From Longimicrobiales bacterium (lineage in GTDB: Bacteria; Gemmatimonadota; Gemmatimonadetes; Longimicrobiales; Gaopeijiaceae), in NCBI GenBank assembly GCA_041690395.1, contig JAWLHJ010000002.1, forward strand, positions 721,199-775,842: a stretch of 54,644 bases of DNA. The letters are read 5' to 3'. Numbering within the stretch: the first letter of the stretch is position 1; the number at the start of each line of letters is the position of its first letter. Both the position numbers and the translations under genes were made by a program. The notes under the pieces are model-generated. The model had not been told where the DNA came from, ran no database searches, and was given only the letters and a program-made list of their open reading frames with translations. Of the stretch, positions 41,548-54,644 are shown one piece after another.

Positions 41548-41820
41548 GCTTCGCGCCGGAGGCCGCAGCGCCCCGCGTGTCCGTCCTTCCGGCCCAACAG
41601 GTCCGTGAGCCGCGGAGCCCCGGCGGAGCCCCGAACGCATCGTCTTCCCGCGCCGTGGGGTCCGTAGGCCCCAGCCCCCGAGGCATCCCCTTCCCACGCC
41701 GCGACGTCCGCAGACCCAGCCCCCGAGACATCGCCTTCCCCAGCCACGACCCACAACGAGGTGCCCACGGCCGTCCCGTTCCGGCATTCCCTCGCCCCGC
41801 GTCTCCGTGCTCCTTGCACC

Positions 41821-43101
41821 ATGCGCAGAGAGCCCGCCGTGACTGTTCGCGTCCACCCCCAGGAGGACCGCATCCTCATCCGATTCGGATGGCGTCGCTT
41901 CGCCGCCGTGCTCGACGCCGTGAAGGCACTCGCCGGGCGCCGCTACCTCCCGGAGCGGGCGCTCTGGAGCGCCCCCGCCCCCGATGCCGCCATCCGATCT
42001 CTCCAGCAGGCGTTGGGGAGGGATGAAGTGTGGATCATCGACGACCGTCCGTTGCTCGGGCCCGAGCTGCCGGCGGGGTGGACCAAGCCGGACGATCGGA
42101 ACCGGCCGGAGGGTCGACATCGGCGCACCACGGCGCAGGCGACCCGACCGGAACGCCCCACGGAAGCGCACCCGGCACGCCCCACCCGCGCCGATGCCCG
42201 AGACCCGGCGCGTCTCGAGCCATCCGACGCCCCAGCCCCCTCGCGGCTCGACCCGACGGGCGACGAGCTCCTGGCGCGCGTCCACGCTGCACTCGACCTC
42301 AGGGGATACAGTCCGCGCACGCGGAAGGTCTATCTAGGCCACCTCCGCCGATTCTTCGAGTGGTGCGGGGGCGGCACCCCGAAGCTGCCGGAAGATCCCG
42401 CGCGGAGTGCGCAAGCGTACCTCCTCGAGCTCGTACGTGGGCCCGGTATCTCGAAGAGCTACCATAACCAGATCGTGAGCGCCCTCCGGTTCCTGTGCGA
42501 GACCGTGCTCGGGCAGCCCCGGCTCGCGCTCCGGATCCCGAGGCCCCGGAAGGAGCGGAAGCTCCCCGCGGTGCTAAGCCCCGGCGAAGTCGCCCGCATA
42601 CTCGGCAAGACCCGGAACCTCAAGCACCGAGCGCTGCTCATGCTCCTCTACAGCGCCGGCCTCAGGGTGGGCGAGGTGGTCCGGCTCACACCCGCCGATC
42701 TCGACATGGATCGCGGGCTCGTGCGTGTGCGCGGCGGCAAAGGCGGAAAGGATCGGTACACATTGCTGGCCCAACGAGCCATCGAAGCCGTGCGTCTCTA
42801 CCGGGACGCCTATCCCGCACGCCCGTGGCTGTTTCCCGGTGGTATGAAGGAGACCCACCTGACGACGCGATCTGTCCAACGCATCGTCCAGGAAGCTGCC
42901 GAAGCCGCCGGCATCGAGAAGCACGTCACGGCCCACACCCTCCGTCACAGCTTCGCCACCCATCTCCTGGAGGGCGGCACGAACCTCCGCGTCATCCAGG
43001 AGCTCCTCGGCCACCAGAGCGCGAGGACGACCCAGGTGTACACCCACGTGGCCCGGTCCACCCTGGAAACCGTGAGGAGCCCGCTGGACAACCTGGAGTG
43101 A
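41821..43101 (+). CDS. Tyrosine recombinase of an integron-like element (SAM-like plus catalytic domains, extra N-terminal domain, no IntI-specific insertion)
   Basis: YSPRTRKVY, LPAVLS, YSAGLRVGE, GKGGKDR, HTLRHSFATHLLE, LGH, TQVY, terminal RSPLD; start uncertain (41761/41821/41839). Confidence 0.92.
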   Translation: MRREPAVTVRVHPQEDRILIRFGWRRFAAVLDAVKALAGRRYLPERALWSAPAPDAAIRSLQQALGRDEVWIIDDRPLLGPELPAGWTKPDDRNRPEGRHRRTTAQATRPERPTEAHPARPTRADARDPARLEPSDAPAPSRLDPTGDELLARVHAALDLRGYSPRTRKVYLGHLRRFFEWCGGGTPKLPEDPARSAQAYLLELVRGPGISKSYHNQIVSALRFLCETVLGQPRLALRIPRPRKERKLPAVLSPGEVARILGKTRNLKHRALLMLLYSAGLRVGEVVRLTPADLDMDRGLVRVRGGKGGKDRYTLLAQRAIEAVRLYRDAYPARPWLFPGGMKETHLTTRSVQRIVQEAAEAAGIEKHVTAHTLRHSFATHLLEGGTNLRVIQELLGHQSARTTQVYTHVARSTLETVRSPLDNLE

Positions 43102-43189
43102 AGCGGACCGGATCTTCGGGCCAGATCGGGTCGATGGGCGGTGGGCCACAGGCGGGGCGACCGGAGGCCGGGCCCCCGACGCGATTACC

Positions 43190-43218
43190 TTGCGCCTTAT
43201 CGACAGCCGGTGAACAAT
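43190..43218 (+). promoter_or_regulatory. Candidate cassette promoter (Pc-like)
   Basis: TTGCGC-17bp-AACAAT about 110 bp upstream of the putative attI, pointing into the array. Confidence 0.3.
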
Positions 43219-43318
43219 GCCAGGGTCGGAGCCAAGCCGTCAGGCGCCTCTAATATCGGGACTCTCGACGTCGGAAATCCCCCCGAGAAAGAGCGTAAAG
43301 CGACACTTTGCTTCGGCA

Positions 43319-43332
43319 ATAACCAGTTATGG
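43319..43332 (+). other. Putative attI-type primary recombination site (crossover near G43326/TT)
   Basis: ATAAC-CA-GTTAT palindrome; gttatggaacattggc pairs with gccaacgtcccataac before the first attC; downstream sequence matches the start of the last cassette (54569). Confidence 0.75.
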
Positions 43333-43740
43333 AACATTGGCCGAGCGGTTCGGTTTCTTGCGTCGGCTCCCTATGACGGAGGGCTTGCACGGTCGCGGCG
43401 CGGGGCTCCCCTCTGCCCCCTTTGGGGGCTCTGTAGTTTCCCGTCCGCGCCTGAGCTGGAGCCGACGCTAGACCCGCAGCTTCATCGTCATCTTCCTTGC
43501 TCAGAGGACCCGGCTACCCGATCGCCAGTGGCTCCCTGCGTCGGCGGGGCGAGTGCCTCGAAGGAGGCGCGGCTCCCTTCGTCGCGATCCCGAGAGACCA
43601 GCGCTGTAACTGAGCTCAGGTTCTTGAAGTGAAGTTCTCTCGGAGCCGCGCTTTCTCCGGGGGTAGGCCCGCCGACGCCAGGCGGAGTGCTTGGTCTCAT
43701 CGGGCGGGCTCACGTGGACATCGTGGAAGCCAACGTCCCA

Positions 43741-43891
43741 TAACAAGTATGTTTCTGGGTCCGCTCACTTCGTTCGCTCCCCCTACATGGCCTTACGATC
43801 GAACGTGGCCCGGGAGCGGATCGCAGTGTATTCTCCGGCAGGTAAGCGTGGGCCGGCTGATGGGGGCCACGTCAGAAACATCTGAACGTTA
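43741..43891 (+). repeat. attC-like site 1 (core type B)
   Basis: TAAC-aagt-ATGTTTCTG...ACATGGCC...GGCCACGT-CAGAAACAT-ctgaac-GTTA. Confidence 0.9.
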
Positions 43892-43948
43892 TCGGTCATT
43901 GCAGGCCGGGCATGAGGGCAGGCGGGTCGCGAACGGGCCTCCACTGGA

Positions 43949-44335
43949 GTGAGCGTGCATATTCCGGGACTTGAGATTAGGGAGCCACTGGAGCATCGCC
44001 CCATTCGTGGAACAATCCATGGTGGTTCCGTGGGGATCCTGTTCGGCGTTCTGGCTGTCGTCGGTGGAGCAGATGGTGGCACTCTGTTCGGCGGATACAC
44101 CGCCGGCTGCGCGGCGGCAGGTCTCGTTATTGGGTCTGCCCTGCCATTGTTCCGGTCGAGGGTGCTGGCTGGAGTAGTCGTGGCCGTTGCTTGGTCAGTC
44201 GGCCACGGGATTGCGACTCAACTCTGGGGCCAAGAGATGGGATTCCCGCTTGTGGCCTCGGTCGGGATGGCGATGGGATTCGCCTACGCCGTCTTGCTGT
44301 GGGACTACAAGTCAACAGGAGTAGCGCCGCATTAG
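43949..44335 (+). CDS. Cassette 1: hypothetical 4-TM membrane protein
   Basis: Single hydrophobic ORF inside the cassette; duplicated in cassette 2. Confidence 0.6.
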   Translation: MSVHIPGLEIREPLEHRPIRGTIHGGSVGILFGVLAVVGGADGGTLFGGYTAGCAAAGLVIGSALPLFRSRVLAGVVVAVAWSVGHGIATQLWGQEMGFPLVASVGMAMGFAYAVLLWDYKSTGVAPH

Positions 44336-44513
44336 TGGTGCGCTAAGGTTTCGACCTTAGGGGCACTGCCAGCGTGAGTCAGCCGACATGCCGTCTTGGT
44401 AGTGCCTCGTGGCCTGTGACTAGGCGACGCGTCCTTCAACTCTAGCTCGCGAGGGGACGAAGGTCGGTTTCACCGCCCGGACTGGTGTTGTCCGGCAAGC
44501 CTGCAACGACCGA

Positions 44514-44669
44514 TAACAAGAATGTTTCCGGCTCCGCTCACTGCGTTCGCTCCGACCTACATGGCCTCGAGCGTTTCAGGTCCGTAGACTGGGTGCAGTG
44601 ACGTAGGTTCCGCTTCTGTTCGCATGTAAGCAGTGCGGCGGTGGCCACGTCGGAAACATCTGAACGTTA
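44514..44669 (+). repeat. attC-like site 2 (type A)
   Basis: TAAC..ATGTTTCCG...CGGAAACATCTGAACGTTA. Confidence 0.9.
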
Positions 44670-44727
44670 TCGGTCATTGCAGGCCGGGCATGAGGGTCAG
44701 GCGGGTCGCGAACGGGCCTCCACTGGA

Positions 44728-45114
44728 GTGAGCGTGCATATTCCGGGACTTGAGATTAGGGAGCCACTGGAGCATCGCCCCATTCGTGGAACAATCCATG
44801 GTGGTTCCGTGGGGATCCTGTTCGGCGTTCTGGCTGTCGTCGGTGGAGCAGATGGTGGCACTCTGTTCGGCGGATACACCGCCGGCTGCGCGGCGGCAGG
44901 TCTCGTTATTGGGTCTGCCCTGCCATTGTTCCGGTCGAGGGTGCTGGCTGGAGTAGTCGTGGCCGTTGCTTGGTCAGTCGGCCACGGGATCGCGACTCAA
45001 CTCTGGGGCCAAGAGATGGGATTCCCGCTTGTGGCCTCGGTCGGGATGGCGATGGGATTCGCCTACGCTGTCTTGCTGTGGGACTACAAGTCAACAGGAG
45101 TAACGCCGCATTAG
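44728..45114 (+). CDS. Cassette 2: near-identical copy of the cassette 1 membrane protein
   Basis: Same protein except GVAPH versus GVTPH. Confidence 0.6.
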   Translation: MSVHIPGLEIREPLEHRPIRGTIHGGSVGILFGVLAVVGGADGGTLFGGYTAGCAAAGLVIGSALPLFRSRVLAGVVVAVAWSVGHGIATQLWGQEMGFPLVASVGMAMGFAYAVLLWDYKSTGVTPH

Positions 45115-45298
45115 TGGTGCGCTGAGGTTTCGAGCTTAGGGTCCGAAGAGCACTGCCAGCGTGAGTCAGCCGACATCCCGTCTTGGTAGTGCCTCGTGGT
45201 CTGACTAGGCGACGCGTCCTTCAACTCTAGCTCGCGAGGGGACGAAGGTCGGTTTCACCACCCGGACTGGTGTTGCCCGGCAAGCCTGCAACGACCGA

Positions 45299-45453
45299 TA
45301 ACAGGAATGTTTCCGGTTACGCGGGCTGCGCCCGCTCCACCTACATGGCCTCGAGCGCTTCGGGTCCGTATGCTGGGTGCAGTGACGTGGGTTCCGCTTC
45401 TGTTCGCATGTAAGCTGTGCGGCGGTGGCCACGTCGGAAACATCTGAACGTTA
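45299..45453 (+). repeat. attC-like site 3 (type A)
   Basis: Same consensus as the other repeats. Confidence 0.9.
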
Positions 45454-45598
45454 TATGACATCGCCTGAGGGGTTCTGAGGGGTCGAGGCGACCCTTTGAG
45501 GGGAGTTGAATAGGATTTAACGGAGCCCTTGCGTTAAAAATTTTGGCGCACGATTTTAATGTCCTCACGCCCCATTAAAGCCTCCTTCCCCCACTCGA

Positions 45599-46744
45599 AT
45601 GGACACTTCGGCTTTTGGCCCGAAGTCCCCTGGCAAGCTGGTTCCCGTATCGGGTGTTCGGGACGTTACGCACGCCTTTTGCCCGGAGCCTCTGCCTCCG
45701 AACTGGACGTTTCCGGCGGCCTTATGGCCGCTCCTCACGGACGCCCGAGTCGCTTTGGCGGACCTGAACGGGGTTGGTCGATATCTGCCTAATCCCGACC
45801 TGTTACTGCGCCCGCTCCAGAATCGAGAGGCACAAAAATCCTCGAGTCTTGAGGGGACGTACACGGAGCCCGAAGAGCAGATGCTGTTTGAGCTCGAGCC
45901 CGAGTTGCCCCGAGACGTGGCAGATCCCCGAAATGCTCGCAGGGAGGTCTCAAACTACGCTCGGGCTCTGCGGATCCGGCGCGAGAAGGATGAACTACCC
46001 CTCTCCTGGAGGCTGACCAAGACGCTTCACGAGGTCTTGATGGATGGGGTCCGTGGGTCGGATCGCGCCCCGGGGGAATTTCGGCGGCTCCAGAATCAAA
46101 TCGGTCGGCCGCCCAGATTTGTCCCCCCGCCAGCACATCTCGTCCCAGACCTACTCGACAACTTCGAGAAGTACTTGCATGCTGACGACGGGTTGGACCC
46201 TCTCGTACGTGCTTTTGTAGCGCACTATCAATTCGAAACCATCCATCCGTTCATGGACGGAAATGGCCGCGTCGGAAGACTGCTCCTCGCGATATCGATT
46301 GAGGAGTGGTGCGGACTATCGGCACCTTGGCTCTACATGAGCGACTTCTTCGATAGGAACAAAGACGACTACATCGACCTCATGTTTGCCGTGAGTTCCC
46401 GCGGAGACTGGGAGAGTTGGATCCGTTTCTGCCTCGAGGGAGTCGTGATTCAAGCCAAGGACACTGCCGCACGTTGCGGAGCACTGATTCAATTGAATAG
46501 GGACTTCCACGAGCGGGTCAACCAAATGGGTGCCAGCATCAGGCTCTCGGCTCTGGTCGACGACCTCTTCTTGAATCCCATGGTACGCGTGACGGACGCG
46601 CGAGATCGCCTCAGTGTAACCTACCCCACGGCCCGCAGTGATCTCCAAAAGCTTGAGCGAGCCGGAATCGTCCGGCTCCTGAAAGGAGCGCCACAGCTGA
46701 CTTACTTCTCCGGCCCGATCCTGAACACTATTTACGGCGATTGA
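45599..46744 (+). CDS. Cassette 3: Fic family protein with N-terminal domain and C-terminal wHTH
   Basis: HPFMDGNGRVGR Fic motif; EAQKSSSLEGT inhibitory-like motif; VTYPTARSDLQKL HTH. Confidence 0.92.
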   Translation: MDTSAFGPKSPGKLVPVSGVRDVTHAFCPEPLPPNWTFPAALWPLLTDARVALADLNGVGRYLPNPDLLLRPLQNREAQKSSSLEGTYTEPEEQMLFELEPELPRDVADPRNARREVSNYARALRIRREKDELPLSWRLTKTLHEVLMDGVRGSDRAPGEFRRLQNQIGRPPRFVPPPAHLVPDLLDNFEKYLHADDGLDPLVRAFVAHYQFETIHPFMDGNGRVGRLLLAISIEEWCGLSAPWLYMSDFFDRNKDDYIDLMFAVSSRGDWESWIRFCLEGVVIQAKDTAARCGALIQLNRDFHERVNQMGASIRLSALVDDLFLNPMVRVTDARDRLSVTYPTARSDLQKLERAGIVRLLKGAPQLTYFSGPILNTIYGD

Positions 46745-46781
46745 TGGGTTGCTCCAGACGGTTCGGTGGGGCGACGTCATA

Positions 46782-46930
46782 TAACAAGAATGTTTCCGGG
46801 TCCGCTCGCTGCGCTCGCTCCCCCTACATGGCCTTCAGGCTGTCGTGGCGCTGGAGCAGATCGCAGCGTATTCTCGGGCAGATGGTTCAGACGGTCCGGT
46901 GGTGGCCACGTCGGAAACATCTGAACGTTA
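46782..46930 (+). repeat. attC-like site 4 (type B)
   Basis: Same consensus as the other repeats. Confidence 0.9.
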
Positions 46931-46978
46931 TGTGAAACTGGCCTCGGATTGAGGCCGATCGTGTGGACCCTCCCGAGC

Positions 46979-47007
46979 TTGCTACTGTACCACGTTTGTG
47001 GTACTAT
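46979..47007 (+). promoter_or_regulatory. TA cassette promoter with overlapping palindromic operator
   Basis: TTGCTA-17bp-TACTAT; GTACCAC-gttt-GTGGTAC at 46987-47004. Confidence 0.75.
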
Positions 47008-47013
47008 GTGCCC

Positions 47014-47319
47014 ATGGGTTTCTCCTCCGCGAAGCGAGCGCTCCTGGCCGCCCTCGAGGTTGGCAACTTCCAGCACGAGGCCCGGGAGGTTCTCAGCGAG
47101 AAGAACCTGCTGGCCGTCGGGGACATCTCCGTGGACGAGGTCATCGGCATCGTGAAGCGGGCTCGCGGCCCGGACTATTCGGCGTCGCCTCATCACTGGG
47201 ATCCGGGCACCGAGGTACACGTGTTCCGGCCGACGGTCGAAGGGACCCGATGGTATGTGAAGGCCTACTTCCTTGAAGAACCCGAAGGAACTGCGGTCTT
47301 CATCAGCATTCACCGGTAG
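47014..47319 (+). CDS. Cassette 4: putative MqsR/RelE-superfamily toxin
   Basis: 101 aa, C-terminal WYVKAYF...VFISIH as in MqsR-like RNases; toxin-first gene order. Confidence 0.65.
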   Translation: MGFSSAKRALLAALEVGNFQHEAREVLSEKNLLAVGDISVDEVIGIVKRARGPDYSASPHHWDPGTEVHVFRPTVEGTRWYVKAYFLEEPEGTAVFISIHR

Positions 47320-47325
47320 GACGAC

Positions 47326-47916
47326 ATGAAGATCATCGAAGAAGGTACGAGGGGTGTTGCTCTAGCTCCGGAGCGCGGGAAGGTCCCCGTGGTATTCGAA
47401 TACCGTGACCTGACCCTGGACTCTGGAGTCGTGGTCAAGGACGTCCTCGTTGGGGTGGCTGAGGACACGGGAGAGGTCCTCACCGTTCCGGCCCAGTCCA
47501 CGCCTCGGATCAAGCTGGCCAGGCTGGCGGCGAAAGATGAGACGTTCTCGGTCCGCATCCCATTCGAGCTGAACGATATCCTGTGGGGTGTGTCTCACGA
47601 GCTCGGAGCGAATCCGACGAAGTTCAACTCTGCGTTGATCCGGTTTTATCTACATGAAGCGACCGACAGCCGGACCATGGCCCGGAGGTTGAAGAGGCTC
47701 TCGACTTCCGACCTAGCCGCGAAGTCCTCGAAGACCAAGCTCACCCTCCGGTCCGACTCGGATCTTCTTGAACGGGTCAAGCAGGTCGAAGAGAGAGAGG
47801 GGGTCTCTCGGAGTGAGCTGGTGAGAGGGGCCGTGATCGCAATGAAGGAAGATGTTTTCGACCGGCCGAGGAAGGGTCGCTTGGGTCAGCTAAGAGCCAT
47901 TGCTGAGGCGGTCTGA
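47326..47916 (+). CDS. Cassette 4: putative antitoxin (MqsA-like N-terminus, RHH-like C-terminus)
   Basis: V.DVLVGVAEDTGE resembles the MqsA C..CGE motif; two RHH-like segments. Confidence 0.6.
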   Translation: MKIIEEGTRGVALAPERGKVPVVFEYRDLTLDSGVVVKDVLVGVAEDTGEVLTVPAQSTPRIKLARLAAKDETFSVRIPFELNDILWGVSHELGANPTKFNSALIRFYLHEATDSRTMARRLKRLSTSDLAAKSSKTKLTLRSDSDLLERVKQVEEREGVSRSELVRGAVIAMKEDVFDRPRKGRLGQLRAIAEAV

Positions 47917-47941
47917 TTTGGCCGACCAGGCCAGCATCACA

Positions 47942-48092
47942 TAACAAGTATGTTTCCGGCTTCGCTCACTTCGTTCGCTCCGACCTACATGGCCTCGAGC
48001 GAATGTGGTCCGGGAACCAAGTGCAGCGTATTCTCGAAGTGAAGGTCCGACCACAGTTCGTGGTGGGCCACGTCGGAAACATCTGAACGTTA
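47942..48092 (+). repeat. attC-like site 5 (type B)
   Basis: Same consensus as the other repeats. Confidence 0.9.
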
Positions 48093-48341
48093 GCCGACAC
48101 CCTCAGACAGGTGCGGTAGGCGGGGTGGCCGCAACGAGCTTCTTGGGTTTCGGTCTCTTGGGCGGCTCCTGCGGGGTCGCCGGGTGGCTCAGCGAACCGT
48201 CTCTCTGAAATTCTCCCCTTCCCCGCCCAGGAGCTCAGGCCCCAGCAACCCACAACGCAACGCGACAAGCGCCAAGAGTTCAAAGTCTCGGGTCTAGGGT
48301 CGCGCGCTGAAACGTTCCTTGGTCTGAGGGCATCGGCTAAC
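48089..48341. other. Cassette 5: ORF-less cassette body (253 bp)
   Basis: Homologous to 51811-52065 and 52213-52466. Confidence 0.75.
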
Positions 48342-48493
48342 AAGAATGTTTCCGGCTCCGCGGGCTTCGCCCGCTCCGACCTACATGGCCTCGAGCGTCT
48401 CAGGTCCGTAGACTGGGTGCAGTGACGTGGGTTCCGCTTCTGTTCGTCTGTAAGCCGCGCGGCGGTGGCCACGTCGGAAACATCTGAACGTTA
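48338..48493 (+). repeat. attC-like site 6 (type A)
   Basis: Same consensus as the other repeats. Confidence 0.9.
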
Positions 48494-48581
48494 TGTGTAA
48501 TTGCCCTGGTGCCGGGGGATTGGGTTCAGATGGATGTCGCGAGGCTGATGCGTTCGCGTTGACCCAGGCGGTGATGAGCGA

Positions 48582-49784
48582 ATGAAGGGACTCGGAGTTC
48601 TTCTAATCCTGGGCATGTTCGCATGTGATCGTGCGGACCCACCTGAGGCCAGTGGGATTCCGACTACGACGTCGTCTCCACCGTACCCGGAGTGGTCACT
48701 GAGCTCCGAGCCTGACGTCCGCATCGGGGCGGTGGACGGGCCGCCGGAGTACCAGCTTACCCGCATCGGACTTGCCGGACGTCTAACCGACGGAAGGATC
48801 GTCGTGTTCGATAACGGCTCGTCTGAGCTGCGTTGGTTTGGTCCCGACGGAGGATTCCAGGCGCGAGCGGGAGGTCCCGGCGAGGGTCCAGGCGAGTTCC
48901 GGAGCGTGGTCAGCGCAGCCGTGACTCCACAGGACTCGGTCGTTCTGTATGACTTCAGGAATCAGCGGCTGACCTGGCACGGACCGGACGGAGTTCTCGG
49001 TCGCACCCTGCGGGCCGAGCTACATCCTTCCATGAGGCTCGTTTCCCGCCAAGACGAGCGCATCGTCATTGCGGAGGAACGGCCGGCGTTGAATCTAGGC
49101 GGTGCTGAGTACAACTACGCCCGGGACTCGGTCCTGATCATGTTAACCGGCAGCACGACACAGCCTCTCGACACCTTGGTGCACCGTGCCGGTCGAGAGG
49201 CGGCGACCTGGGTCGAGTACGCGGACGGAAGACCAATCGGCACTCGACAGCTCGGTCTGCCCTTCAGTCATCCGACACTCGTCGGAGCCGCAGCAGAAGG
49301 GATCGTGCTCCTGGAGAGCGGACGGTCTGAACTGGCTTTCCTGGATGATGAGGGCCAGGTGGTTCGGATGGCACACCGTACGGACGTGGATTCCCCTGCT
49401 CTTTCAGCTGTTCTGCGCCAAGAGTACGTGAGGAACGCCGTGCAGTCGGCGAGAGAGAGAGACGTTCCGGAACAGCCCGCTCGAGCTGCGGCCGAAGGTC
49501 TCCTCGCGGTGATCCCGGAAGGACATAGAGTGTCGCCCTTCGACCGCATGCTGACAGACCCTGTCTCGGGAAGGATCTGGGTCCGTGACTATCTGTTCGA
49601 TTGGAATGCCGGGGGAGCTCAGTATTGGACGGTGCATGATTCGCTCGGCCACGTCTTAGGGCGAGTCGCAACTCCGCCGGGACTTGAAGTCATGCAGGTG
49701 GGCTCCGATTTCGTGGTCGGAGTCGAGCGAGACCAGTTGGGGGTGGAGTATGTTGTCGCGTACTCGCTGGAGGGCTCCGACTAG
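48582..49784 (+). CDS. Cassette 6: lipoprotein, probable 6-bladed beta-propeller
   Basis: Lipobox MFAC; GGPGEGPGEF NHL-like motif; GRIWVRDY. Confidence 0.75.
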   Translation: MKGLGVLLILGMFACDRADPPEASGIPTTTSSPPYPEWSLSSEPDVRIGAVDGPPEYQLTRIGLAGRLTDGRIVVFDNGSSELRWFGPDGGFQARAGGPGEGPGEFRSVVSAAVTPQDSVVLYDFRNQRLTWHGPDGVLGRTLRAELHPSMRLVSRQDERIVIAEERPALNLGGAEYNYARDSVLIMLTGSTTQPLDTLVHRAGREAATWVEYADGRPIGTRQLGLPFSHPTLVGAAAEGIVLLESGRSELAFLDDEGQVVRMAHRTDVDSPALSAVLRQEYVRNAVQSARERDVPEQPARAAAEGLLAVIPEGHRVSPFDRMLTDPVSGRIWVRDYLFDWNAGGAQYWTVHDSLGHVLGRVATPPGLEVMQVGSDFVVGVERDQLGVEYVVAYSLEGSD

Positions 49785-49877
49785 ATGCGGATCGCGCGCG
49801 AAGAAGATCTTTGGGTTCTCCTCTCGGCGGCACCGCCGGTAACCGCATCGGTTTAGGTTGAGCCGGGCAACTACACA

Positions 49878-50027
49878 TAACAAGAATGTTTCCGGGTCCG
49901 CTCGCTGCGCTCGCTCCCCCTACATGGCCTCGAGCTGTCGGACATCGTAAGCTGTCAGTTGAACTCGGTGCGTTTCAGCAGAGAAAAGCGCATATGCTGG
50001 GGCCACGTCGGAAACATCTGAACGTTA
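49878..50027 (+). repeat. attC-like site 7 (type C)
   Basis: Same consensus as the other repeats. Confidence 0.9.
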
Positions 50028-50058
50028 TGTGAAACAGCTCCCCGCCTGAGGGAACGCG

Positions 50059-50628
50059 GTGGCATCGGAAGCAGGAGAATTGAACAGGGACACCCTGCCC
50101 GAGGTTATCGAGACGGAACGACTCGTCCTTCGACCGTTCCAACTCGGTGACGTGGAAGATGTCCTGGCCTATGCTCAGGATCCTGAATGGGCCCGCTTCT
50201 TGAGGGACCTCCCTCAGCCCTATGGACGGGCCGAGGCTGAGCAGGCTGTCGCCAAGCAGCTCCTGATGGACCGGGTTCGAGAGCCGAACTGGGCCTTGGT
50301 CTTTGAAGGCCAAGTCATCGGAGGCGTGATCCTATTGTTGGATTTCTCGAACAGGTCCGCCGAGGTCGGCTACTCCGTGGGCCGCAAGCAATGGAATAAG
50401 GGGTTGGCTACGGAAGCCGTCCGCGCCGTCATCGATGCGGCATTCTCCACACATGAAGATCTCAACCGGGTGTGGGCGAGGACGGATCCGGACAACGTGG
50501 CTTCCCAGCGGGTGCTCGAGAAGGTGGGAATGACGAAGGAAGGCGTTCTGCGTCTGAGTCGGGTGTACAACGGAGAGGCGTTCGACGAAGCGTACTTCTC
50601 TTTGCTTCGGACAGAACGGGGAGCGTGA
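50059..50628 (+). CDS. Cassette 7: RimJ/RimL-family GNAT acetyltransferase
   Basis: IETERLVLRPF, AEVGY, WNKGLATEA, NVASQRVLEKVGM..EG. Confidence 0.92.
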   Translation: MASEAGELNRDTLPEVIETERLVLRPFQLGDVEDVLAYAQDPEWARFLRDLPQPYGRAEAEQAVAKQLLMDRVREPNWALVFEGQVIGGVILLLDFSNRSAEVGYSVGRKQWNKGLATEAVRAVIDAAFSTHEDLNRVWARTDPDNVASQRVLEKVGMTKEGVLRLSRVYNGEAFDEAYFSLLRTERGA

Positions 50629-50659
50629 TCGACGGGGTACGGCGGGGAGCTGCATCACA

Positions 50660-50814
50660 TAACAAGAATGTTTCCGGTTACGCGGGCTGCGCCCGCTCCA
50701 CCTACATGGCCTCGAGCGCTTCGGGTCCGTATGCTGGGTGCAGTGACGTGGGTTCCGCTTCTGTTCGATTGTAAGCAGCGCGGTGGTGGCCACGTCGGAA
50801 ACATCTGAACGTTA
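50660..50814 (+). repeat. attC-like site 8 (type A)
   Basis: Same consensus as the other repeats. Confidence 0.9.
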
Positions 50815-50826
50815 TCGGTCATTGAA

Positions 50827-51060
50827 TCACGACCATGGTGCAGAGACTTCTCCGTCTAGCTCGTCGAGCTTCCGCTGCATGAAGGCTCGGGCATCTTGCA
50901 CTGCTTGGTTGTAAACGTGGGGCCCGACCTCATCGAGGCAGAAGTCAAGTAACTGGGACGCGCGGAACGAGCTCAAGGTCTCGTCGAACTCCTCCAGATA
51001 GAACCCCTGGATACGGAGAATCAGCTGCTCGCGTCGCTCGTCTGAGAGCCTCAGAGTCAT
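50827..51060 (-). CDS. Cassette 8: DUF2164 family protein
   Basis: IQGFY.EE...LLDF...EVGP.VYNQAVQDA. Confidence 0.8.
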   Translation of the reverse strand: MTLRLSDERREQLILRIQGFYLEEFDETLSSFRASQLLDFCLDEVGPHVYNQAVQDARAFMQRKLDELDGEVSAPWS

Positions 51061-51118
51061 CGGGTTTGTCCGTCCATTTCTTGCGTTAGAGAAAGAGTAC
51101 GATGGCCCACAGTGAAAG

Positions 51119-51625
51119 ATGAAGCTAACCGAGCCCAGGATCGAACGATCTCACCACATGAGGTTGGTTGGACTCAGTGCGCGGATGTCCTTTGGCGAGC
51201 CAGCCATGTCAGAGCTGTGGCGGACTTTTCGTCCGAGAGCCCGGCAGATCGGGAATCGGAGGAGCCAGGACTTCGTCTCCATGCGCGTGTTCGTTCCTCC
51301 GCTGAAGACCATGCCCCGGCTGGATTCCCCGTTCGTGCAGTGGGCGGCCGTTGAGGTCCACGACTTCGATCACGTTCCCGAAGGCCTCGACACGTGCGTG
51401 GTGCCGGAGGGTCTCTATGCAGTCTTTGTCCATCACGGTACAGCGGAGAGCTTCGGCCGAACGGCCCAGTTCATTTTTCGAGATTGGTTGCCGCAGTCTC
51501 CGTATCAGCTAGCACCCCGGGAGTTCTTCGAGATTCTTGGTCCAGACTATCGTCCGGACGATTCCGATGCATCCGAAGAGGTCTGGATACCTGTCGAACC
51601 TCGGCTACCAAGGCAGAGTGACTGA
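51119..51625 (+). CDS. Cassette 8: GyrI-like small-molecule binding protein
   Basis: LVGLS, LW..F, WAAVEV, VPEG, GLYAVFVH.G, IF.DWLPQS.Y, EEVWIPV. Confidence 0.88.
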   Translation: MKLTEPRIERSHHMRLVGLSARMSFGEPAMSELWRTFRPRARQIGNRRSQDFVSMRVFVPPLKTMPRLDSPFVQWAAVEVHDFDHVPEGLDTCVVPEGLYAVFVHHGTAESFGRTAQFIFRDWLPQSPYQLAPREFFEILGPDYRPDDSDASEEVWIPVEPRLPRQSD

Positions 51626-51664
51626 AGATGGGGCCGATCGTGTAGGTGATGATTCAACGACCGA

Positions 51665-51814
51665 TAACAAGAATGTTTCCGGCTCCGCTCACTTCGTTCG
51701 CTCCGACCTACATGGCCTCGAACGTGCAGGCATCGTATGCTGGCAGGTGAACTCGAAGGTTTCAGGTAAGATGAGCGCATATGCGGTGGCCACGTCGGAA
51801 ACATCTGAACGTTA
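51665..51814 (+). repeat. attC-like site 9 (type C)
   Basis: Same consensus as the other repeats. Confidence 0.9.
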
Positions 51815-52065
51815 GGCGACATCACTGAGCAGGTGCGGTAGGCGAGGTGCCCGCTATCAGCTTCTAAGGTTTCGGTATCTCGGGCGGCTCCTTCAGGGTA
51901 ACCGGCCGGCTCAGCGAGCGGGATCTCCACTGAGGTCCCCCTTCCCCGCCCGAGAACTGAGGTTCCATCGAACCTCGTCGCATCGCAACCAGCGCCAAGA
52001 GTTCGAAGTCTTGGGTCTAGCTTTCACCGGCTGGAACGTTCAATGGCTCAGTGACGCCGCCTAAC
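51811..52065. other. Cassette 9: ORF-less cassette body (255 bp)
   Basis: Homolog of cassette 5. Confidence 0.75.
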
Positions 52066-52216
52066 AAGAATGTTTCCGGTTGCGCGGGCTTCGCCCGCTC
52101 CACCTACATGGCCTCGAGCGCTTCGGGTCCGTAGACTGGGTGGAGTGACGTGGGTTCCGCTTCTGTTCGCATGTGAGCCGTGCGGCGGTGGCCACGTCGG
52201 AAACATCTGAACGTTA
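52062..52216 (+). repeat. attC-like site 10 (type A)
   Basis: Same consensus as the other repeats. Confidence 0.9.
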
Positions 52217-52466
52217 GCCGACATCGCGGAGCAGACGCGGGAAGCGGAGTGCCCGCGACGAACAACTGAGGTCGGTATTTCGGGCGGCTCCCTGCGGGGT
52301 CGCTGAGCGGCTCAGCGAACGGACTGAGATCAGGGGTCACCCCACTCCTCCACCCCGTTTCGGACCTGACATGGCCCACAGATCGCGGGGGAGCGCCAAG
52401 AGTTTGGAGGTCCAGGGTCTAGTTTCACCCCCAGCTACGTTCGTTGGCTCCGCGACGCCGGCTAAC
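52213..52466. other. Cassette 10: ORF-less cassette body (254 bp)
   Basis: More diverged homolog of cassettes 5 and 9. Confidence 0.7.
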
Positions 52467-52617
52467 AAGAATGTTTCCGGTTACGCGGGCTTCGCCCGCT
52501 CCACCTACATGGCCTCGAGCGCTTCGGGTCCGTATGCTGGGTGCAGTGACGTGGGTTCCGCTTCTGTTCGCATGTAAGCCACGCGGCGGTGGCCACGTCG
52601 GAAACATCTGAACGTTA
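52463..52617 (+). repeat. attC-like site 11 (type A)
   Basis: Same consensus as the other repeats. Confidence 0.9.
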
Positions 52618-52669
52618 TACGCCATTGGCCTAAGGGTTCGGTTTCACTTCCGGGTGGGGAGGCGAACAG

Positions 52670-53191
52670 ATGGGACGAACGGGAGCTTCCGCATCGCCTA
52701 CAGCTTCCCTATGCCTTTTCCTCATCGGACTCGCAGCCTGTGCCCCGGATGCTCAGCAGCACCTGGTAGAGCAGTTAGCTGAACCCGTCTCGGCCAACCC
52801 TGGATGTTACGAGGTATCTGGCACCACTGGCTTCCCCGAAGGAATTTTCGATCTGTATCTCCCCGAGGCCTTTCGGTTGCGGCCGCCCCGGCAGTCGGTC
52901 GCCGACGGGCACATCTTCAGTTATGCCGTCGAGTTCTTGAGCGTACCCGAGCGCTACCGCCCTTTCAATCGCATCGGAGAGGCGAGGAGCATACGCCCTG
53001 ACTCGCTGCTGGTCGTCTGGGACGGGGTAGTCCAGCGATTCCAGATCCGGCAAGATGGAGCGCTCACGGGGATCGTCACTCTCAGGAGACCGGAGATCGA
53101 GGTTCTCGGTGAGGTTGAGGCCCACCTGGTTGATTGTCCTACCGAGGAAGCTCCGACTGCCCCTCAAGTACCGTTCCCTGGAAGTGGCTGA
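52670..53191 (+). CDS. Cassette 11: hypothetical lipoprotein
   Basis: GGAGG RBS; lipobox LAAC. Confidence 0.6.
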   Translation: MGRTGASASPTASLCLFLIGLAACAPDAQQHLVEQLAEPVSANPGCYEVSGTTGFPEGIFDLYLPEAFRLRPPRQSVADGHIFSYAVEFLSVPERYRPFNRIGEARSIRPDSLLVVWDGVVQRFQIRQDGALTGIVTLRRPEIEVLGEVEAHLVDCPTEEAPTAPQVPFPGSG

Positions 53192-53296
53192 GGACGCAGC
53201 GAGCGACAAGTAGCTTTCTCGGGACTCGGAGGCTGAGAGCGCTTCGGCTCAAGGGTGAGGGCCAAGGACTGTAGGGAAGCGACGGCCAACGGCGTA

Positions 53297-53452
53297 TAAC
53301 AAGAATGTTTCCGGCTCCGCTCACTGCGTTCGCTCCGTCCTACATGGCCTCAAGCGTCTCAGGTCCGTATGCTGGGTGCAGTGACTTTGGCTTCGCTTCT
53401 GTTCGCATGTGAGCAGTTCGGCGGTGGCCACGTCGGAAACATCTGAACGTTA
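53297..53452 (+). repeat. attC-like site 12 (type A)
   Basis: Same consensus as the other repeats. Confidence 0.9.
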
Positions 53453-53585
53453 TACGACAAAGCGCAGGTTGTAGGGAGCAGGTCGGTAGGCCCGGACCAA
53501 GGACCTGGGTCGGTTCCGTCGGGCACGGACGTACAGATACGAGAGGCCGCCTGATCCGCTCGATCTCACGAATGGGAACCCCAGC

Positions 53586-54308
53586 TTGGAGAACGCTCAC
53601 GCCGGCCAGGTAGGAAGATCCGAGAGCGCCCGAGCCGGCGTGGCCGCCGCGGCCATCTTCCTGTTCGCAGTAGGGGCCTCCGCTGTGCTGACCTGGTCCA
53701 ACGGAAGCGTGTATAGCTTCCTATTCGGCGGGCTCAACCCCCTCCTGGTGACTGCAGCCGCCGCCCTTTTTGGAGTCGCTGCGCTTCAACGCCTTGCCCT
53801 TCTCGGGTGGTTCCAGGCTGGGGGCGCCAGTACTCGTAGCGTCGCGCTCGCCTCGGTGCTCGGTGCAGCCCTGACCGTTCCGGTCATCGTCATCGATCTC
53901 TTCGGTGGCTTTCCGGCCGAGCTGAATGTTCGGTTTCCGGAGTCCTTACTCTTCTATCCGTCCATCGCCGTGGTTGCGGAGTCGGCCTTTCATCTGGTGC
54001 CCCTGGCCCTGATGGCGATGGTGTGGAGGTGGACTTCCCTGGAGTTCTCGCGCGCTCGGCTCTTTGCGATCGGGATTGCTGCGGTAATCGAGCCGGTTCT
54101 CCAGGTGGCCTGGGGGAGTGAGATGTTACCGAGTTGGGCGAATGCCTACGTCGGCATCCATCTCTTGGTCTTCAATGTGGTCGCGCTCGAGATCTTCCGA
54201 CGCTCTGGGTTCGTTGCGCTCTATGGGTTCAGAGTCGGGTACTATCTCGTTTGGCACATCACCTGGGGCTACTTCCGACTTCCGCTGCTCTTCGAGAGCG
54301 GTACTTAG
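53586..54308 (+). CDS. Cassette 12: polytopic membrane protein, weakly CPBP/Abi-like
   Basis: About 7 TM segments; AESAFH and YYLVWH motifs; start uncertain. Confidence 0.65.
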   Translation: MENAHAGQVGRSESARAGVAAAAIFLFAVGASAVLTWSNGSVYSFLFGGLNPLLVTAAAALFGVAALQRLALLGWFQAGGASTRSVALASVLGAALTVPVIVIDLFGGFPAELNVRFPESLLFYPSIAVVAESAFHLVPLALMAMVWRWTSLEFSRARLFAIGIAAVIEPVLQVAWGSEMLPSWANAYVGIHLLVFNVVALEIFRRSGFVALYGFRVGYYLVWHITWGYFRLPLLFESGT

Positions 54309-54422
54309 GGAGGTGGCGGGCAGATTCCGGATGCGCGTGGATCTTGGACTGGAACCGGCTGGCACTTGTTTTGGGGTCAACCGCCGGTTGGGCCGGGCGT
54401 CGCGGGCCTGCGCTTCGTCGTA

Positions 54423-54572
54423 TAACAAGAATGTTTCCGGGTCCGCTCCCTGCGGTCGCTCCCCCTACATGGCCCGGAACGGGTGTGGCTCGAGAACGAA
54501 GTGCAGCGTATTCTCGATCAGGTCCGCGTGGACCGTCCGGTGGTGGGCCACGTCGGAAACATCTGAACGTTA
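54423..54572 (+). repeat. attC-like site 13 (type B)
   Basis: Same consensus; followed by a truncated cassette 13. Confidence 0.9.
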
Positions 54573-54644
54573 TAGGACATTGGCCCGAACGGTTCGGTTT
54601 GTTGCGTCGGCTCCCTCTTTCGGAGGACTTGCACGGTCGCGGCG

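Follow-up and report, generated by a model that had tools for sequence, protein, structure and literature searches.

The stretch of DNA examined here (the window; 54,644 nucleotides, positions 721,199 to 775,842 of contig JAWLHJ010000002.1 in assembly GCA_041690395.1 of a Longimicrobiales bacterium) ends in an array of integron cassettes, and our subject is a family of short cassettes in that array that contain no gene. The array forms the end of contig C2 of the source genome (G000, to which the contig labels C1, C2, C5 and C6 refer), with 13 attC sites inside the window. A tyrosine recombinase gene with matches to PF00589 and PF13495 points into it; the best family of the recombinase is TIGR02249, the integron integrase, with 213 bits and thus under the cut-off of 265. 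The same attC repeats are found again on contig C1, where they cover ~35 kb at the contig end. The last cassette of the window is incomplete, and its twin on C1 precedes the attC that stands at the start of C1; the parts on C1 and C2 therefore appear to belong together, probably as a single chromosomal integron array. Our parser delimited 42 cassettes and missed the first, the one at the contig end and a few in the tail, which brings the array to a total of ~46-50. That first, attI-adjacent cassette, at about 43327-43888, is also missing from the numbering used in the preliminary description of this DNA, from which we keep the names c5, c9 and c10. Small satellite clusters with the same attC lie away from the integrase at C5:381249-385202 and C6:27175-28680; family copies were looked for in both and none was found. 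Records with a matching attC end are mostly titled Gemmatimonadota.

A search of the genome found ten copies of the gene-less family among the 42 parsed cassettes, three in the window (c5, c9 and c10) and seven on C1, all of full length and none outside the array. The unit measures 252-256 bp without its attC and ~401 bp with it, has a GC content of 63%, and its ten copies are the ten shortest of the 42 parsed cassettes. Every copy is bounded by TAAC...GGAAACATCTGAACG/TTA (the slash marks the crossover), the arrangement expected from a G/TTRRRY crossover and a 3' attC with R'', L'', L' and R' boxes. The lengths of 253, 255 and 254 bp reported earlier for the window copies are exact at the coordinates given for them, and the five shared blocks named with them are present letter-perfect in all three; those intervals have the upstream crossover's G as their first letter and do not include each copy's own attC, and the complete mobile units are those of Table 1. 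That all copies are followed by a type A attC is correct in the window but not genome-wide, where the other attC type is found with two of the ten. In one copy the two ends are mismatched. The window copies are, as had been said, clearly diverged (c5/c9 72%, c5/c10 62%, c9/c10 64% identity), and across the mosaic set of ten, pairwise identity ranges from 62 to 100%, all indels are of 1-2 nt and the spacing of the blocks is constant at 98-101 nt. Two of the ten are 100% identical to each other and have different neighbour cassettes; altogether the family occupies ten array positions here and one in a metagenomic array (L056), with differing flanking cassettes, as is expected of a mobile unit. 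The alignments used below (A2 and A3, "the ten aligned sequences") hold nine of the ten genomic copies, one identical twin being omitted, and the L056 copy. An origin from attC, attI or another cassette was considered and rejected, local alignment scores outside the family being at most 30 (without a shuffle control).

Table 1. Coordinates, in window positions, of the gene-less cassettes, their parts and the start of the array.
Feature	Position	Strand	Basis or remark
Family copy c5: body 48090-48341, own attC 48338-48490	48090-48490	+	sequence parsing
Family copy c9: body 51812-52065, own attC 52062-52213	51812-52213	+	sequence parsing
Family copy c10, outlier subtype: body 52214-52466, own attC 52463-52614	52214-52614	+	sequence parsing, identity
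Candidate -10 element TAGGGT, c5	48295-48300	+	TANNNT column, tRNA-box likeness; function inferred
Candidate -10 element TAGCTT, c9	52018-52023	+	TANNNT column, tRNA-box likeness; function inferred
Candidate -10 element TAGTTT, c10	52420-52425	+	TANNNT column, tRNA-box likeness; function inferred
Conserved blocks GGGCGGCTCC and GGCTCAGCGA, c5 (c9 51882, 51908; c10 52282, 52309)	48160-48195	none	sequence
Tract C-rich on top and G-rich on bottom strand, c5 (c9 from 51938; c10 52340-52356)	48215-48228	none	
Inverted repeat of 6 bp, CCAAGA-N8/9-TCTYGG, c5 (c9 51995-52014)	48272-48291	none	better pairing on bottom strand
5' arm of c5 terminal stem, pairs with 48322-48341 on bottom strand; same in c9 and c10	48089-48108	-	
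3' arm of c5 terminal stem, ends in R'' box TAAC	48322-48341	-	fold, covariation
IntI-like tyrosine recombinase	41761-43101	+	true start probably 3' of ORF start; adjoins array
Candidate attI crossover TAACCAG/TTA, ahead of first cassette	43320-43329	+	sequence; role inferred

Beyond this genome, a pattern search of metagenomes gave seven hits, one a true homologue (L056, of c10 type with the same attC) and six due to chance, and contigs spanning inner parts of c5 or c9 were present in all four public soil runs examined, from four studies. No full-length match was found in 200 genomes of the same taxonomic family, in 400 of the same order, in 150 relatives searched by profile, or in four genomes with similar attC, among them a 93%-complete congener that has 21 such sites. 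A pattern scan of the Genome Taxonomy Database (GTDB) gave no hits, two scans of viral contigs gave none each, 50,697 phage records held no match and plasmids yielded one 46-nt match at chance level; the weak genome hits, of which eight were inspected, are pieces of 22-39 nt without attC context, and model searches gave some marginal hits besides. The samples of 200, 400 and 150 genomes overlap, exact patterns overlook diverged members and metagenome-assembled genomes often come without arrays, so that absence here means "not found in those searched". Within that scope the distribution is narrow, with ten full-length paralogues in one array and none of full length in the sampled relatives.

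The family cassettes are non-coding. The minus-strand frame AEP..TET that had been described as shared by c5 and c9 and frameshifted in c10 is real, and the conclusion drawn from it, that these units encode no protein, is supported: there is no synonymous excess in any of the six frames (z -0.81 to +0.55, 159 alleles) or in a 21-codon window of that frame (10 of 28, where 8.6 are expected), 12 alignment columns contain indels of 1-2 nt, single-base indels occur throughout the copies, and the frames are interrupted by stops and frameshifts. The minus-strand frame has a GTG after a G/A-rich tract in six of the ten aligned sequences and a stop after 21 codons in five; in the two c10-type sequences GGAGG is present, and an in-frame GTG lies three codons higher up. 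On the top strand a 72-aa frame, terminating in the TAA of R'', is open in 2/10 copies and has no homologue among proteins of 39-126 aa. Some copies contain chance open reading frames (ORFs) of 62-73 aa, none of them conserved, and Pfam gave no credible match for four frames (best E 0.22).

A structured form of the RNA that the preliminary description had listed among its options found no support in the interior of the cassettes. With the ends removed, fold z scores lie between -1.74 and +1.58 in 20 strand tests, structure conservation indices (SCI) of 0.32 and 0.36 are not above those of column shuffles, alignment folds of both strands contain no interior covariation, and Rfam yields nothing within the copies at E values of up to 1 (one match of E 0.47 in 43000-54644 lies outside them). 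Neither did we find terminator-like sites in the copies. These tests have limited power, with ten sequences in two lineages, but as alignment folds, single-sequence z scores, SCI and Rfam were all negative we rejected an interior structured RNA. Weak support exists for a hairpin of the CCAAGA repeat, in which 95% of cells are paired and one pair has changed on both sides, in one sequence.

Strong covariation is confined to one helix, which brings both ends of the cassette together on the bottom strand; it has 19 pairs, with 98.9% of cells paired, and eight pairs changed on both sides that represent only about three end types. A comparable terminal stem of 15-24 positions is found in all 42 parsed cassettes, the parser selecting for a stem, and all 42 have an A/G wobble at stem position 11, a feature for which the parser does not select. 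Cassettes of related arrays (L046-L056) share the stem and its wobble. Because it is common to all 42 cassettes, this stem is recombination-site anatomy and nothing particular to the gene-less family; in the excised circle it lengthens the attC R box. The terminal inverted repeat is also cassette-specific and extends far past the 7-bp R box, over 15-24 positions, in the window at 43889-54569 and on C1 at 988k-1018k. It may matter for the formation or the recognition of cassettes; one literature search returned only a general mention.

Are the shared blocks under selection, as had been suggested? In the three window copies conserved columns are clustered (p about 0.001 by column shuffles), and the runs score observed was not attained in any of 120 uniform-rate simulations with re-alignment. 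Over ten copies the longest invariant run is 8 nt, the blocks eroding relative to the three-copy view. Of 218 columns, 100 are invariant and 39 have three or four alleles, a combination matched by none of three uniform-rate simulations; two sub-lineages vary at shared sites (odds ratio 2.7-2.8, p 0.02 and 0.006); and novel c10 alleles give an odds ratio of 1.37 against 0.5-0.6 in simulations (99th percentile 1.04-1.27), which in a plain Fisher test is not significant. A gamma model is better than uniform rates by 16 log units (alpha 0.8), although recombination can mimic uneven rates. Our first Fisher test of constraint (odds ratio 6-11, p 1e-8) was discarded because shared ancestral alleles had inflated it, and its corrected versions are weaker. 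In c10, columns 141-180 are near random identity with their length retained, and the C-rich tract just before them has retained its composition. At least 12 of 252 triplets reach the permutation floor of p 0.0005 in a triplet test, which marks the copies as mosaic; a PHI-like test gave no sign of recombination overall (p 0.29). Among the eight main-clade sequences alone clustering is not significant, 16% of simulations reaching the observed value. We conclude that site-specific constraint is real but modest, and that much of the block pattern comes from the outlier lineage c10/L056, with recombination between copies inflating it.

Our preferred reading, which we hold tentatively and at rather less than an even chance, is that the cassette serves as an internal, probably activator-dependent promoter. 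A cassette can be duplicated by excision plus replication, and in this way the integron integrase would have copied the unit into ten places of one array. Such copy-and-paste duplication of cassettes is documented (PMC8024014). The cassette would then be kept for a weak or activator-dependent sense promoter near its 3' end that switches on a promoterless cassette downstream. The block GGGTCTAG ends in TANNNT, the only such hexamer conserved on either strand; it lies in sense orientation in nine of the ten aligned sequences, 42-43 nt 5' of attC, with TAG invariant and the following base free. It includes CTAG, a tetramer that the genome contains 929 times where 3126 would be expected, a 3.4-fold deficit. 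We also count in favour of this reading the ten full-length copies confined to the array, two of them identical, the uneven site rates, and the short indels with their constant block spacing. The family's TAGNNT resembles boxes upstream of several tRNA genes of the genome, which read by eye as TTGAC/TTGAA-17-TAG(C/A/G)TT or similar. If TAGNNT is a working -10, transcription would start ~7 nt after it and read through attC, and the upstream blocks or the CCAAGA inverted repeat might bind an activator that substitutes for a -35. In experiments on three Vibrio species, 8/10, 3/4 and 11/13 gene-less cassettes had sense-strand promoter activity, which was not predictable in silico (PMC11014356). 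An RNA-library run, available as assembled contigs only, had the same profile as the DNA runs, and we draw no conclusion on expression from it. As a separate observation, about 17 tRNA genes are packed on one strand at C1 919395-922598.

A good deal weighs against this promoter. There is no conserved -35, and the earlier suggestion of a promoter, while plausible, depends on a single -10-like hexamer. The best sense two-box scores, from a crude genome-trained matrix, are 1.5-8.5, the level of coding DNA (median 4.8, 95th percentile 8.3), and a generic promoter scan returned no promoter-like site in 43000-54644, though it also overlooked a likely real promoter at a toxin-antitoxin-like cassette. 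Column shuffles produce a conserved TA...T in 9% of cases, or 15% counting either strand, and TAG..T in 1.5%, for a pattern picked after it had been seen. One copy has TAGCTC, three of ten copies precede another cassette without a gene or one with an antisense ORF as its longest, and even spacing of the copies along the array is not supported (p about 0.19). A Fisher test of novel alleles in c10 against the main clade gave p 0.39, or 0.17 without the middle segment. Finally, the Vibrio precedent concerns AT-rich DNA for which spurious transcription is discussed (PMC11014356), whereas the family is 63% GC.

Amplification without benefit, which the preliminary description had not considered, fits much of the data, and we regard it as a possible though not a probable explanation of the whole. 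On this account the cassette has no useful payload and owes its spread to its shortness and ready recombination, while shared descent and recombination between copies explain its inner similarity. The shortness of the copies agrees with it, as do their terminal stems of 20 positions each, where the remaining 32 cassettes average 18 (the copies being non-independent), the restriction of strong covariation to that stem, the want of coding and fold signals, the mosaic copies with one pair of mismatched ends, the documented duplication of cassettes and the failure to find the family in the congener that shares the attC type; Boucher et al. (PMC1382264) name this option. It accounts less well for uneven site rates that remain in tests less sensitive to topology, for the lack of any deletion over 2 nt along a tree of 1.1-1.4 substitutions per site, for a C-rich tract retained in c10 where identity is otherwise near random, and for the PHI-like test. 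The two accounts, promoter and payload-free passenger, are not mutually exclusive. A small, largely unstructured RNA, either a sense transcript with a C-rich, anti-Shine-Dalgarno-like tract or an antisense one from the CCAAGA hairpin, seems unlikely to us. The C/G-rich tract occurs in all ten aligned sequences with G4Hunter-type scores of 1.48-2.04, and a score of 1.5 is reached by 5.5% of 109 pieces from other cassettes; G-U pairs are tolerated in the 6-bp hairpin of the bottom strand, where TTGAAC-17/18-TAGACC is the best-scoring promoter-like pair in 2/10 sequences, and PMC6557892 cites a small RNA from a Xanthomonas cassette that has no ORF. The interior fold scores and indices, the Rfam search and the lack of a terminator-like site all speak against such an RNA. 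A G-quadruplex was set aside, as the scores are raised but the tract was chosen post hoc.

We give still less credence to a mobile two-way regulatory module, and consider it very improbable: here the invariant CTAG would form back-to-back -10s, the sense start driving the next cassette through a block-bound activator and the antisense start giving an RNA with a 5' hairpin, Shine-Dalgarno tract and 21-codon frame that would run into the upstream cassette and tune it, and the ten recombining variants would be a shuffled set of switches. A bottom-strand peptide of ~21 aa, begun at a GTG after the purine-rich tract, or the remnant of a decayed gene, is disfavoured and in our judgment likewise very improbable. 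The start configuration in six of ten sequences, with GGAGG and the extra GTG in c10 types, and the 72-aa top-strand frame open in two copies would suit this reading, but the start is absent in two of ten sequences and the stop in five, synonymous changes are at chance, single-base indels run through the copies and the protein searches were empty. Least probable of all is a DNA decoy or docking site whose blocks bind a host or phage protein and whose many copies titrate it. Short blocks at fixed spacing, an inverted repeat and ten copies are what one might expect of a decoy, but all ten hits of GGTCTAG-N14/17-ACGYT are inside the copies, composite motifs do not occur before genes, none of five family motifs lies upstream of the 26 sigma-factor and two LexA-domain genes, and the phage and plasmid searches found nothing above chance; the decoy or spacer role once suggested has no positive evidence. 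ECF, sigma-54 and LexA-type motifs were also tried, and no match was found upstream of the 28 sigma and LexA genes.

Other cassettes of the array merit description. A second gene-less family, of ~420 bp, occupies the first position after attI; it has three copies in the genome (window 43327-43744 and 54570-54644, and C1:1002823-1003241) and one in a congener (L047, G051). Its SCI is 0.75, seven to eight pairs have changed on both sides in only three sequences, and z ranges from -0.85 to -2.68; it looks more structured, and looks a better non-coding RNA candidate than the 252-256 bp family, though this is unproven. Two tandem cassettes that are 97% identical carry a non-coding 3' tail of ~180 bp (44335-44513 and 45114-45298), at the start of which a weak Rfam match to DUF3800-VI (E 0.47) falls below the cut-off. 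A two-gene toxin-antitoxin-like cassette, present at 46928-47945 and C1:1007254-1008270 with 92% identity, has its own promoter-like TTGCTA-17-TACTAT and both times directly precedes a family copy, the following copies being of different subtypes. An unrelated 266-bp cassette without a long ORF lies in a relative's array (L049 14241-14506, G221).

The 252-256 bp family is a set of paralogous non-coding cassettes and matches, point for point, the type that Boucher et al. (2006; PMC1382264) described from Vibrio chromosomal integrons, in which the non-coding share of arrays is 6-49% and for which gene conversion, selfish spread and promoter or RNA roles have all been proposed. Like those, it is present in many copies in one array with similarity over the whole length, has no protein match for the frames tried, no conserved ORF over 150 bp and no codon or synonymous-site pattern, and lacks homologues beyond a narrow group among the genomes searched. 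It differs in belonging to another phylum, likely Gemmatimonadota, at 63% GC, with no relation in sequence expected, in an identity that falls to 62% against more than 80% for the Vibrio paralogues, and in an integrase gene that points towards the array. Like the promoter cassettes of Vibrionaceae (Blanco et al., 2024; PMC11014356) and Treponema (Tansirichaiya et al., 2019; PMC6557892), its members are gene-less and sit in a large array far from Pc, and by analogy the family may work as they do. Promoter activity was measured in those cassettes whereas here it is proposed from the sequence, and the Vibrio promoter cassettes are discussed as AT-rich and are 491-666 bp long whereas ours, with attC, have ~401 GC-rich bp and a -10-like box only. 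Resemblance to sRNA-Xcc1 of Xanthomonas campestris (as cited in PMC6557892) extends to an ORF-less integron cassette with a proposed RNA function, but our family has neither an Rfam match nor a fold signal.

The finding carries a known kind of cassette into another phylum, in a soil host apparently known from assemblies only, and no new mechanism is demonstrated by it. The reason for the many gene-less copies retained in large integron arrays has been debated since 2006, with selfish and regulatory answers, and to this debate the family brings natural variants that are 62-100% identical and one candidate -10 box that can be mutated. As the host is GC-rich, spurious transcription driven by AT content would be a weaker explanation of any promoter activity here than it is in Vibrio.

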